DNA of 63,748 nucleotides, filler included, from Reclinomonas americana ATCC 50394 (Eukaryota), in the NCBI GenBank assembly GCA_048213135.1. It is 4 parts of 3 records of this genome, joined end to end, with 100 filler letters (N's around TTAATTAATTAA, not from the genome) between each part and the next. Parts side by side here need not be neighbours in the genome. Positions count along the whole stretch, not along the records: positions 1 to 29,651 come from PS015486.1; 3 more parts are not named here. One strand, 5' to 3'. This document shows positions 1 through 6,000 of the stretch, in pieces. Below the pieces are notes generated by a model that saw only the letters and a list, made by a program, of their open reading frames with translations, made no database searches and was not told where the DNA came from. The number at the start of each line of letters is the position of its first letter. The first letter of the stretch is position 1. Both the position numbers and the translations under genes were made by a program.

Positions 1-3000
1 CGGGGCGGGTGCGGCAAAGGGCATCATCAAGGCGCGATCGGCCAACATCTTCTTTCGCTCGATCTCCGCGGCGATAGCTGCTGTGCGTTTGCGAATGTCC
101 TCCTCGAGCTGACGCTTGCGCTCGCGTCGCGATTCGTTGCGCAGACGCTTGGCGATGCTCTCGGCGTCTTGGAACTCGGTAGTCTTGGCACACTCCAACT
201 CGGCACCGACCAGCCACGTCTCCGACTCGGTGTGCTCGGTGGTGAACGGCGACAGAAGCGTCGGCATTGCACGGTCCCTGTCCGCCTTCTTGTCGCCGGG
301 ACTGCAGAAAGACCATGCAAGTGAGCGACAACAAACAACGGACTGTGCAAGTAACAACACGCAACTTGTGAAGAATCTTGAACATGCCGGTTCCCAGCGG
401 CACCGGCGTACCCATGATGATGCACTCTGACACACCGTCCATGTGATCGCAGCGCGTGTGCGCCGCCGCATCGAACAAGTGGTCCACTGTCTTCTCGAAC
501 GAGGCGAGCATCAGCACCGAATCCTTCATCTTTTGCACGCCGAAACGCGTAATGCCGAGGATCTCGCCCTTGAAGGTCATGGTGTCGGCCAGCAGCTGAA
601 TGTGTCGACTGTCGATGTTCATGCCGTGCGACTTCATCGTATACTGGATCTCGTCCACAATCGTCTTGCGGGCCGCCTCAATGCCGAGCACTTTTTCCAC
701 CTGGGATACGTTCGCGAGAATCAGCAGCTGCACATTAAACAAGAAAGGCGTCGCATCCCAGTACCTCCATAATGTGGTTGCTTCGCGTCTTGCGGGCCAC
801 CACGCCGGGCGTGCCCATCACTTGCAGCAACTTGGTGCCCTCGGCCAAAATCTGGTGCTCCTTGCCCTTGACTGCATCCTCAGCCTTGACACTAATGACG
901 GCGCGACTGACCGTGTCAATGCCGGCGACCACAATCTTGGAGATGGCGTTCTTGATGGTCTGCAGCTGGTAGTACATGTGCGCGCGGTCCTGCATCGGCG
1001 TCATGATGCGCAACTTGTACTCGCTGACAGCTTGCACGTGCTGTCACAGGAGACCGCGCGACGTAAGCCACACTGCTGCAATATGACACCAAAACCTCCA
1101 CCGCTTGCTGTCACTCACCTTGTCGCGCAGCTTCAACTTGGGCGCCTTGATGATAGCCGCTCGCACCTGCTCGGCTGAAATGCTCAGCTGCAGATCCTGA
1201 ATGGTCTTCTCCGCCAGGCGCACTGAAAGGTAGCAGCTCCCGGGCGAGTACACCTCCTTGATGTACTCGCACACCTCGCCGAGGGTGGTGCGCTCAATGC
1301 GCGCCTTGACCAAACGCGCACTCTGCTCCGACCACGGGTTCTCCAGCGTGGCGGTGATGATGGGAGTGTTGATCTTTTGCGAGGCATTGATGATTTCCTT
1401 GATGCGCGGTACACCAAGCGTGACGTCTGACACCCGCGCAGGACTGTCAGCGACATTCTCCGCAAGGCCAGAAAGCAACTGACGCAACTCATGGAGGCGA
1501 CGCCGGCAAAGTGGAATGTCTTCAGAGTCATTTGCGTGCCTGGCTCACCGATCGACTGCCCAGCCAGTGCACCAATGGCCTGACCCGGTTGCACGTGTGC
1601 GTCGCGGCACTTGGTGACGCACAGGCGGCAAAACTCCTCCAGCTGGTTGCGCGTGATGCCAAAGGCCTTGTTTACCACACCAGTGGCCAAGTTGAAATCT
1701 GCCATGCGCAAGTGTGAGGGCAATCACCACCAATAGCTGCTGCTGTGCGACAAGGGCCACCTTGGCGGGTGCGGATGCGATCGCCTGCATGAAAATGCGA
1801 AAGTGAGTACGAGTGCGCGCACGCTTTCCATCGTGACACCGCCACCACACACGCAACTTGGTCGGCGAGCAGTGAGGGGTGCGGCAACTGAGACACAGAG
1901 AACATAAATGCGTAAGGATTCTCGTGCAGCACAGATATGCGCCGCGTCGGCAGTGACACGAACCGTCTGTCGTTGTGGATGCGAGCAGAATCTGATCGCG
2001 CAGTGCTCGGTAGCCTGTGATGACGAGTTTCAGAGGGGGAACAACTGTAGCAAGACAATCGTCGACATTACCTTGCTCGGCTGCAGTGGAGTCTTTAACA
2101 CACAAAGAGCGCATGTTAGTAAGCACGACACAAAGTGTCACGACGGTCATTCATCGACTCACCGGCCATGGCTTGGCGAATGACTGATGGTCGCGGAGAA
2201 AACACACAGTGACGATGAGACAACGGATCATTGTTGCCCTGCACACTCCTTGCGCAAACAAGAACACACACCGGCAGTCATGCGCTCGCCTGCCAAGCAC
2301 ATGAGTGAGCGAATGAGTGTCGACAAGATGCACAACGCGCAGATGGACTCACCCGCTAATCTCGCCTCCTTGACTCCGACAACCTCTGTACAGATAGGTG
2401 CACGCAATGAGATGCCAAGCGCAGCTCAAGCTCCGTGTTGATCCTCACTGACCTCGGACACCCACGGGCGGTGGAAGCAGGAAGGGTGGTGCTGCAGACA
2501 AAGTGAGACATTTGACGTAACGCGAGACGTGACACGCCAACGCTAACCATCGAGGAGAGGCTCGACATCTATGCACAAATGGAGAAATGCGAATCGTCCA
2601 GTTAGCGAATGCGTGCGTGCTTTTGGAGAGGCAACGGTGCGGCTGGCACATACCCTTCATGGCGAGCACGGCGGCCTCCACGGCGGCATCAGCGGCTGCG
2701 ACGTGTCAACGTGAGCATCTACAGCACACACGCAGCAGGGGCGACACAAGCGGGAACCTTCCACAGCAGCCGTCGCCACTGTTCAACAAAGGCGACATGA
2801 GTCTCAAAATGAGAGATGTGTGCACCCAAACCAACAATGAACTAACCGCGCTCTGCATCGCTCGTTGCTGTGTGATGAGACGCCGTGCGACGTAAGAAAC
2901 ACGGACAACACGAACAAATGATGAGCATGCAATGACAACACACACCGGCATTTGCGTCTTCGTCGCCTGTGCACCGCGACAGTGTGCGTGAGAATTTGTG

Positions 3001-6000
3001 CCGAGAAACCGCGTAATGGGACTGCAGACACTCACCTTCCGCAAAGTACGTGCGTCGCTCAATGTTGGTTGTCGCCTTTCGTGCCTCTCGGCTCGCTGTG
3101 AATGCGGCAACATGAGCACCCGAACGAGAATTACACAAACCTACTTACGTCAACACGAACCAAGGAGAGCGCTTCGAGCACCTGCGACAACAAAGCATAC
3201 GTGTCAGTAACAGGCAGCATACGTAGAATCACTGGCGCAAGCGAAAAAGGTGCGTACTATTGACGGCATTCAGTGCGGCTGGCATGTGCACGACACAAAC
3301 ACACATGATGAGCAGCAGGACGCAAGTAGTACGGAAGAGAGAGGGCGTACAAAACCTTGAGCACAGCGCTTGGCGGCCTCACTCACTCGCTCCGCTGCCG
3401 AGTGGTTGCACGTGAGCGAGCAGACACAACACGACAGAAACGAGGAACGGCGCAAGAGAACGCACCTGGGTTGAGTGGCTTCAACTTTTTGCGTTCCAGC
3501 ATGGTCAGCACCGCCGTTGCAGCATCTGCAAGGCCACCAGGGAGTGTAAGAAGCACAGATATATCACTGGCACCGTGTGTCGACACTCACCATGCTTGAT
3601 CGGTGGTGCGTCTGCCACAACGAAAACAAACACACAAGTCAACACAACGCCAAATAAACGCAAACAACACCGTGGAAAACACCCAACTCCTGACGACGTC
3701 GCAAGCTGCCCAGACAATGCGCAAGCAAGTGAGAAGAACCGCCAATGCACAACAAGAGAGAAACAGTGCATGTATACACACACCTTCATGACACCGTGCA
3801 GCGGCTGTCCATGATAGGAGATGAGAGAATCTGTCGTCAGATCACACTTTTCCAACACACCAAACAATTCGTGGCGACGCACCACCAGTTGCTTTTTCAG
3901 AATCTGCAGCAGCGCGTACTGTGAGCGACTCAGTGCGGCAGAGACAAGCGAGACAAAGCGCACGCAACATTTTACAGTACTGGCGCCGTCACCTGCATCG
4001 TTCGGCATAGTAAGCTTACGTGGCGTGACATGACACAACGATCCGTTGAACACAAGTAACGCAACGGAGAGCACGCTGACTCGCTGTGAACCACGTTGGT
4101 GTGGCCAGGCAGCGCCGCAAGCCCAACGCTACTCGCTCATCGCCGAGATTCCTGGCCTCTTTCAGGACGTATTCCACCATCTGAGAGGCGCGACAAAGCA
4201 TGAGGCATGCACTCGGACTGGCGGTGCTGCTGCGATCGACGCAACTGACTGCGCAAACGACTTGGGGCACCACGCCTTGGCGTCGTCGCTGCTCAGGTAG
4301 CCAATCACATCCTCCTTCATCTGCCACGGCAGGAGGTACACGTCCGTGCGAGGCAGGCGCTGCGCGCACACGAAACAAACAGATTAGGGGGTCATGCGCA
4401 GTACGTGCGCACACAGAAACACAGATGTGCTCACTGACCTTGCACTTGACGAGCACACGATCAAAGTTGATCGGCTTGCCCTCCTTGGCTTCCATGAATT
4501 GCGGGTCAAGACCGTCGTCACCGTACGTGAACTGCACCACACCGTGCGTCGAGTTGCGCGCAGTTTTGTCGTAGTGCACGTGCAGGTCTTCCAGCGCCTT
4601 CATCAGACGACGCTGCATGTAGCCCGTCTCGGCCGTCTTGACAGCTGCGCGGCATCAGCGTGTGAGCAGAGCCAGCCAAAGAGGGGGAACGAGAACGAGA
4701 AAGTGAGGATGGCACACACACCAGTGTCGACAAGGCCCTCACGACCGGTGATGGTGTGGAAGAAGAACTCGGTGGGTGTGAGGCCGGAGAAGAACGAATT
4801 GGCCACGAATCCCTTTGCCGGTGGTTCCTTGGAGCGCTCCGGGAAGTGCGGCAAGGTGCGGTTGACGAACCCGTTGGGAATTCGCGTGCCATTGACTGTT
4901 TGCTGACCGACACAGGCAACCATTTGACTGATGTTGATCGGTGAGCCCTTGGAGCCACACAACGACATGATTAGTGGTGCGTTGTCCGGATCCAACTCGT
5001 TCAAGCACATCTGTGACGGCTGGTGGGTCATCGAAGTGTACCACAGAGGGGCACACGAGCACGTACGTACCTTGCCCGCGTCCTCACGAATCACAGACAG
5101 GAGACCGTTCAACTTGGTCTCCAACGACTGCTCCAAATCACAGCCCGGCTGCAACTCCAGCTTGCCCTCCTTCCAGTCGGCAATCAACTTGCTGGCCTCT
5201 CGGTATCCATCTGACACCAACTTGGCCTTCTTGGACTGCACAATGGGCGACGGCGTGACATCGCTGATGCCGATCGAGAAACCGCGGTTGGTGATCCAGC
5301 GAGCCGACAAACGAGCCAGACGGCCCATGCATTCGGCGGCGTAGGCCGCCGAGTAATCGCGAATGAGTGTGTAGAATACGGAGTTCTTGGAGCCGCCACC
5401 AAGCACACCTGCNNNNNNNNNNNNNNNNNNNNNNNNNNNNNNNNNNNNNNNNNNNNNNNNNNNNNNNNNNNNNNNNNACACCCGATGGCACATGATACTC
5501 ATGCGATGCAAGGAAGGCTGGCGATTGAACAACACCATGTCACCGGATATCATGTGGCGCTCGACAATGTCGCCGACCTTCAACTCGTCGGCAACCTTGT
5601 TGCGATCGCCGTACCGCGTAAAGATCCTGCAACAAAGTGAAATGAGTGTGTGTGGTTGATTTCAGCAGTCAGTCCCACGCCCGCCTGCGCAACTTGCGAA
5701 TGGAGCGGCCGTTGACGATTTTCTCGACATAATTGGCACCCGGATGGACGTCGGGGCCGCAGCGAATCAGCTCCTGCATGCGCTTCTTGTTGTAGTCGGT
5801 CACGCGCTCCGGGTATGTCATGGTCTTGGCGACCAGCACTGGCACGCCGACCTGGTGCACGCACAGAGTGAGAAGAGCAGGTGAGGGGGGGGGAGCTCGG
5901 AGAGGGGCGAAAAAAAGGGCACTGACCTCGTGAATGCCGAGGTTGGGATCAGGGGAAATGACGGTACGGCCGGAAAAGTCCACACGCTTGCCAGACAAGT

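Follow-up and report, generated by a model that had tools for sequence, protein, structure and literature searches.

Schistosome micro-exon genes (MEGs) have exons of 3 to 81 bp, introns of up to 5 kb and small secreted products (PMC10526429). Here we report a predicted array of 23 microexons in the gene for RPC1, the largest subunit of RNA polymerase III (Pol III), in the protist Reclinomonas americana ATCC 50394. The array lies in a 63,748-nucleotide stretch joined from four parts of genome assembly GCA_048213135.1 (the window), and positions are counted along that whole stretch. Like the MEGs, the array is a long run of very short, symmetric exons with lengths in multiples of 3, which could in principle be dropped without a frameshift. 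The first-pass annotation of the window had drawn this parallel, and for the exon architecture it holds. It does not extend further: the array introns are 56 to 88 nt long, unlike those of MEGs, which reach 5 kb (PMC10526429). Moreover, the microexons supply only 660 nt (an insert of about 220 residues) of a large nuclear enzyme, unlike a coding sequence made mostly of microexons, and secretion of a nuclear polymerase subunit is implausible.

The 54-bp exons of fibrillar collagens, the PEVK exons of titin and the exons of spider flagelliform silk form tandem arrays of exon-intron units, which are explained by unit amplification. The features in common with the RPC1 array are a uniform intron phase, a modal exon size and one structural repeat per exon. 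However, the units of those arrays are usually still similar to each other and belong to animal structural proteins, whereas the RPC1 unit has 7 codons and its DNA similarity is gone. At the protein level, RPC1 of other lineages carries low-complexity inserts rich in Ala, Glu, Lys and Arg at the same alignment position; the insert in the window differs in being the longest of those compared and in being split into about 23 exons.

Local tandem genomic duplication creates extra splice-site pairs and hence new introns (PMC4974935, PMC2891723). The cases published so far are single duplications of exonic sequence that contains AGGT, whereas about 20 rounds are proposed here. In each round an entire intron would be copied along with 21 nt of exon, and coding sequence would be gained as well as introns. 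In animals, exons of symmetric phase (1-1) are associated with protein segments that are flexible or disordered (PMC3632108), and several small exons in a row are subject to alternative splicing in troponin T (PMC2447309). In those genes the introns are long and splice sites are recognized across the exon, unlike in the array described here, which has introns of about 70 nt and belongs to a unicellular eukaryote. In a literature search with supplements outside its scope, no such array was found described for a protist or for RPC1.

RESULTS

A predicted run of 23 microexons in the RPC1 gene

RPC1 is encoded on the minus strand of the window, from about position 7400 to position 1. The array occupies 2367 nt of this gene and divides into 24 short introns, which total 1707 nt, and 23 microexons, which add up to 660 nt. 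All 24 introns begin with GT and end with AG, with lengths from 56 to 88 nt and a median of 72 nt. The microexons are 18 to 60 nt long, every length is a multiple of 3, and 11 of the 23 are exactly 21 nt. All junctions are in phase 1 (24/24 introns). When the microexons are joined, an open, stop-free frame connects the upstream exon, which ends at 4066, with the downstream exon, which starts at 1698. The coordinates, GT-AG ends, multiple-of-3 lengths and phase had been proposed in the first-pass annotation, and all were re-derived from the sequence.

We found that the remaining RPC1 exons are 114 to 335 nt long. Elsewhere in the window, the longest run of predicted exons of 60 nt or less was 3, in 17 other gene models scoring at least 50.

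The array probably represents about 23 constitutive, translated microexons, predicted from the sequence, that arose by tandem duplication of an exon together with an intron. This reading draws on the intron-like signals of the array, its multiple-of-3 lengths and open frame, its codon bias, and the variability of the same site in other lineages. From these observations we infer that the array is spliced and translated, and that it has a history of duplication.

The features of the array are listed below. "Both parses" refers to a frame-agnostic parse and a frame-aware model, which are described in the sections that follow.

1699 to 4065, minus strand: whole array in RPC1, 24 short introns and 23 microexons
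4066 to 4180, minus strand: RPC1 exon upstream of the array, with 38 codons and a phase-1 end; its donor, GTTGCG, lies at 4065, and the parser favors the GT at 4060
3969 to 3992, minus strand: microexon 1, 24 nt, uncertain; the frame-aware model favors 3981 to 3992
3883 to 3903, minus strand: microexon 2, 21 nt, uncertain; 3866 to 3903 (38 nt) in the frame-agnostic parse, the sole non-multiple of 3 of that parse in the array
3784 to 3804, minus strand: microexon 3, 21 nt, uncertain; frame-aware alternative 3782 to 3804
3688 to 3705, minus strand: microexon 4, 18 nt, uncertain; frame-aware alternative 3683 to 3705
3591 to 3611, minus strand: microexon 5, 21 nt; exact in both parses
3466 to 3525, minus strand: microexon 6, 60 nt; exact in both parses
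3356 to 3394, minus strand: microexon 7, 39 nt; exact in both parses
3258 to 3278, minus strand: microexon 8, 21 nt; exact in both parses
3161 to 3181, minus strand: microexon 9, 21 nt; exact in both parses
3036 to 3095, minus strand: microexon 10, 60 nt; exact in both parses
2946 to 2966, minus strand: microexon 11, 21 nt; exact in both parses
2847 to 2867, minus strand: microexon 12, 21 nt; exact in both parses
2758 to 2778, minus strand: microexon 13, 21 nt; exact in both parses
2654 to 2695, minus strand: microexon 14, 42 nt, readable as two units of 21 nt; with an alternative donor, 2636 to 2695 (60 nt)
2548 to 2568, minus strand: microexon 15, 21 nt; exact in both parses
2462 to 2491, minus strand: microexon 16, 30 nt; with GTCAGT as alternative donor, 2453 to 2491 (39 nt)
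2353 to 2385, minus strand: microexon 17, 33 nt; exact in both parses
2272 to 2289, minus strand: microexon 18, 18 nt; frame-aware alternative 2266 to 2289
2163 to 2183, minus strand: microexon 19, 21 nt; frame-aware alternative 2142 to 2183
2072 to 2092, minus strand: microexon 20, 21 nt; acceptor AAG, and a CAG 12 nt downstream would leave a 9-nt exon, 2072 to 2080
1964 to 2014, minus strand: microexon 21, 51 nt; exact in both parses
1858 to 1887, minus strand: microexon 22, 30 nt; exact in both parses
1761 to 1784, minus strand: microexon 23, 24 nt; exact in both parses
1489 to 1698, minus strand: downstream RPC1 exon, starting in phase 1; a helix and conserved motif leading into the trigger loop

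Frame-blind parsing of the array

Since a stop-free GT-AG path is nearly always available in random sequence, a test of the array needed to be blind to the reading frame. We therefore used a frame-agnostic parser, which considers splice signals, intron length and non-periodic composition only and takes no codon input. The underlying gene model was self-trained on the window with positions 1650 to 4100 excluded, and settled on 94 introns.

The frame-agnostic parse divided the array into 23 exons, 19 of which were identical to the microexons listed above, and 22 of the 23 lengths were divisible by 3. When other penalties were used or composition scoring was turned off, the counts were 22/23, 21/23, 19/21, 21/22, 17/19, 17/20 and 14/16, and the excess of multiples of 3 persisted in every setting. 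In the controls, the same parser returned 63 divisible lengths among 145 internal exons of 13 other genes, and 500 among 1468 exons in 100 shuffles of the region. The binomial probability of at least 22 of 23 lengths being divisible by 3 is 5e-10 at a rate of 1/3 and 1.5e-7 at the observed control rate. The parse score of the real region was 184.8, versus -13.2 +/- 13.2 for the shuffles. Neither chance nor an annotator's selection of GT and AG sites accounts for the pattern.

Splice signals of the array introns

We then compared the array introns with the 94 training introns, which have a median length of 67 nt (5 to 95% range, 56 to 78 nt), a CTNAY-type branch site and a CAG acceptor. The commonest donor among them is GTTGCG (23/94; for example at 1488, 4245, 5693, 22729 and 23958, all on the minus strand), and the usual GTRAGT is not the favored donor in this genome. 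GTTGCG also occurs as the donor of 3 of the 24 array introns. With C at +5 and G at +6, this donor is expected to pair poorly with the canonical 5' end of U1.

The array units score like ordinary introns of this genome. The median scores of array and training introns were 4.6 versus 4.2 for the donor, 9.6 versus 10.0 for the acceptor plus branch site, and 13.4 versus 12.0 in total. A YTNAY branch-like motif located 6 to 40 nt before the 3' end was present in 23/24 array introns and 87/94 training introns, compared with 68/285 exon chunks. Since units of 56 to 88 nt correspond to ordinary introns recognized across the intron, exons of 9 to 60 nt would be no obstacle to splicing.

A scan with Rfam showed no RNA gene in the array, and by Rfam the introns are not hosts of small nucleolar RNAs. 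The sole Rfam match at the gathering threshold in the window was a transfer RNA gene at 42152 to 42223 on the minus strand (63.8 bits).

Coding signs and constraint on the reading frame

The frame of the joined microexons contains 0 stops and has a codon log-likelihood of +25.0 over 221 codons, whereas the other two frames score -6.7 and -49.9 and contain 8 stops each. The lengths of the array introns modulo 3 are distributed 6:9:9, whereas every exon length is a multiple of 3. Because the introns drift modulo 3 and the exons do not, the frame appears to have been maintained while the introns underwent insertions and deletions (indels). Exactly such a pattern of exon and intron lengths is expected after many indels if the reading frame is under selection.

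Junctions with alternative sites

The frame-aware model agreed exactly with 15 of the 23 microexons and, by comparison of the exon lists, with 22 of the 23 acceptors, and a core of 14 exons was identical in both parses. For exons 1 to 4 (3688 to 3992), an alternative mixed-phase, in-frame path scores 54.4 in the frame-aware model, versus 36.9 for the phase-1 path. The frame-aware path there runs through 4061-4180, 3981-3992, 3883-3903, 3782-3804 and 3683-3705.

Exons 14, 16 and 20 have competing sites that are offset by +18, +9 and -12 nt (2636 to 2653, 2453 to 2461 and 2081 to 2092), all multiples of 3. If used, these sites would alter the insert by 3 to 6 residues without a frameshift. The AAG acceptor of exon 20 is atypical, as all 94 training introns end in YAG.

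Identity of the host gene

A tblastn search with the RPC1 of Seculamonas ecuadoriensis (P0002, 1447 residues) produced an ordered tiling of the gene from 7396 to 365. The exons flanking the array show collinearity with RPC1, which they match better than they do Rpb1 or RPA1. For the exon segment 1490 to 1696, the best matches among solved structures were human RPC1 (E value, 3.5e-17) and yeast RPC1 (E value, 9e-17), ahead of Rpb1 and RPA1. The best matches in protein databases are named RPC1 and have five Rpb1-type Pfam domains. When 732 residues of the C-terminal half were compared without the array, the closest proteins were P0002 of the jakobid Seculamonas (61% identity), P0129 (60%) and P0018 (58.5%). 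By these matches the organism is placed near the jakobids, although only loosely.

A run of N's at 5413 to 5477 marks an assembly gap in RPC1, where the equivalent of Seculamonas residues 486 to 656 is missing (about 170 residues, including the active-site region). More runs of N's occur at about 6650 to 6800, 9200 to 9500 and 12150 to 12700. At positions 1 to 301 (minus strand), RPC1 extends beyond the ends of its homologs, with a charged last exon rich in Arg, Lys and Glu that leaves the start of the window. With this C-terminal stretch, RPC1 has a second extension that is specific to the lineage.

Position of the insert in RPC1

The downstream exon aligns to residues 1005 to 1061 of human RPC1, 1056 to 1117 of yeast C160 and 32 to 93 of archaeal A''. 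This alignment places the insert about 26 residues past the archaeal split between A' and A'', and about 45 residues ahead of the conserved trigger-loop motif, between the end of the conserved ...GL helix and the helix that precedes the trigger loop.

In an alignment of 15 homologs, several lineages carry inserts rich in Ala, Glu, Lys and Gly at the same column, with up to about 185 extra residues. We also measured the anchor-to-anchor distance between two conserved motifs in 58 homologs; the median was 156 residues and the largest value 340. In the window, the insert raises the corresponding distance from 155 to 375 residues, which exceeds that of all the other proteins among the 59 compared. 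Additions are evidently permitted at this site, a solvent-exposed surface of variable length, and the insert would be a tolerated expansion rather than a catalytic part.

Composition of the insert

The insert contains 220 residues, of which 50 are Ala. In 8 of the 11 seven-codon exons, Ala occupies residue 5 (permutation P, 0.008), which is a weak heptad motif in register with the exons. The lag-7 autocorrelation of the insert is 0.27 for Ala (permutation P < 5e-5) and 0.26 for hydrophobic residues (P < 1e-3). The 7-residue periodicity is suggestive only. The insert is probably helical and interrupted by a few proline stretches. When the upstream exon (38 residues) was compared with the PDB, the only matches were to designed helical repeat proteins and at chance level.

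Elsewhere in the window, an open frame at 13430 to 15331 (minus strand) resembles a ubiquitin hydrolase and contains long low-complexity runs rich in Ala and Glu, rich in Gly and Lys, or made of poly-Gln. In this organism, it may be common for conserved proteins to have Ala-rich inserts.

DISCUSSION

Proposed origin of the array

Duplication of an ancient exon-intron module, which was among the origins suggested in the first-pass annotation, is the explanation that we favor. It is suggested by the uniform phase, the 21-nt mode of exon length, the heptad motif and the 42-nt exon that reads as two units. All 24 array introns are in phase 1, compared with 49 of the 188 predicted introns elsewhere in the window, where phases 0, 1 and 2 are mixed (92:49:47); mixed phase had been noted before for introns in the rest of the gene.

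The process could have started from one phase-1 intron at the site and 21 nt of adjoining exon, copied in tandem many times. Such copying would have set all introns to one phase and the exons to a size of 7 codons. The copies would then have diverged past recognition, with small in-frame indels and the loss of a few introns producing the exons of 42, 60 and 39 nt, and selection would have held every exon at a multiple of 3.

A number of observations weigh against the favored reading of the array as constitutive, translated microexons that arose by duplication. As regards the exons themselves, donor sites are weakly defined in this genome, and up to 8 exons have an ambiguous choice of donor. 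The parser still yields 10 to 19 low-scoring introns in shuffles of this T-rich region; the intron count alone therefore proves little, and it is the frame statistics that carry the proof. As regards translation, the codon bias of the microexons is weaker than that of other genes (0.113 versus 0.268 per codon), their G+C content at third codon positions is 0.58 versus 0.75, and the codon score of the first five exons is negative (-9.4 over 35 codons).

As regards relatives, the segment has close to the median spacing of homologs when the insert is left out (155 versus 156), and the best-scoring full-length homologs, P0002 and P0018, lack the insert by alignment. For P0129, another of the best-scoring homologs, which was assessed by its anchor motifs, either the anchor spacing is below 193 residues or the two anchor motifs are absent. 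Protein searches with the flanking exons gave top identities of 74% and 71% and no protein from the same organism. A scan of metagenome contigs found no close relative, but only 3 loci at 53 to 60% identity.

Duplication in particular is opposed by the lack of similarity within the array. No unit-length DNA repeat was found there: Tandem Repeats Finder reported only a 12-nt array of 2.4 copies and a 9-nt array of 2.2 copies, and a repeat search reported only chance-sized families of 14 to 24 nt. The earlier statement that the exons are not repeats of each other is thus borne out. The array introns are barely more alike than unrelated ones (mean local score, 8.64 versus 8.18). In a control of 113 protein windows from this genome, the lag-7 autocorrelation had a 95th percentile of 0.236 and a maximum of 0.314, so that the value of the insert falls among the top few percent of real proteins but does not stand out from them.

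Possible intron gain in a continuous insert

It was considered that a continuous coding insert of about 660 nt may have come first, and that about 22 introns were then gained, through mobile elements or repeated local gains, with no duplication of a cassette. In favor of this sequence of events, protein models of other lineages have continuous-looking low-complexity inserts at the same site, the array introns show no detectable common ancestry, and the genome is rich in introns, with one roughly every 100 to 300 nt in other genes. However, independent insertions predict mixed phases, as seen outside the array, and not phase 1 throughout; they also predict a broad range of exon sizes, and not 11 of 23 at exactly 21 nt. 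Within the 63.7-kb window, no mobile intron family was detected: the maximum local score was 16 among array introns, 17 between the array and the 94 other introns, and 16 after shuffling, so that similarity to other introns gives no hint of such a family. We regard intron gain as possible but unlikely.

Possible exon skipping

The microexons could also be in-frame cassette exons that are variably skipped, which would give Pol III isoforms with inserts of different length. All exons are symmetric, with phase 1 at both ends, and the first-pass annotation had stated that any subset could be skipped in frame. This is nearly so: among 300 possible exon-exon joins, only that of exon 1 to exon 17 creates a stop (TAG). 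The frame-keeping alternative donors and acceptors at several exons (+18, +9 and -12 nt), and a codon bias below that of constitutive exons in other genes, are also in line with skipping. On the other hand, the array introns equal ordinary introns in the strength of their splice signals, which favors constitutive splicing where introns are recognized individually, and descent from one duplicated unit explains the uniform phase more simply. Variable skipping therefore seems rather doubtful to us, and the idea of combinatorial isoforms, arithmetically possible, is unsupported. A combined version, in which an arm of Pol III was made from nothing by about 20 cassette copyings and its length is tunable by in-frame exon skipping, we consider improbable.

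The possibility of one long intron

Removal of the whole 2367 nt as one intron, directly or stepwise, would leave an mRNA without microexons and an RPC1 of ordinary length. Such an outcome would be consistent with the in-frame direct join of 4066 to 1698, which speaks against translated microexons, and with the near-median anchor spacing, the insert-free homologs P0002 and P0018 and the negative codon scores of the first five exons described above. It is nevertheless very improbable, as it leaves unexplained the 22 of 23 blindly parsed multiples of 3, the open frame, the codon bias and the free drift of the introns modulo 3; it requires an intron about 35 times the genome median, whereas the predicted introns of 19 gene models reach 151 nt at most; and it scores -5.5 in the model, versus 181.5 for the 24-intron parse. 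Only 2 of the 23 microexons start with GT, so that re-splicing at regenerated donors is not generally possible, and recursive splicing of one long intron was rejected on this ground.

Implications

For the favored explanation, constitutive microexons that arose by tandem duplication, the value of the finding depends on confirmation by transcripts. If transcripts confirm the array, it would be among the densest constitutive microexon runs known outside animals, and its host is a housekeeping gene from a protist lineage that has been little studied. There is also a practical warning: standard and homology-guided gene predictors would bridge the array by one long in-frame intron, and about 220 residues would be lost without notice.

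If the explanation is true, the array would show how spliceosomes that recognize short introns one by one cope with serial exons of 9 to 21 nt, and how selection on the reading frame alone can be legible from exon lengths. It would likewise show how amplification of an exon-plus-intron unit adds new protein sequence at a permissive surface site. Judged from its sequence, the RPC1 array of R. americana is apparently a rare example of protein sequence grown by the copying of such a unit.

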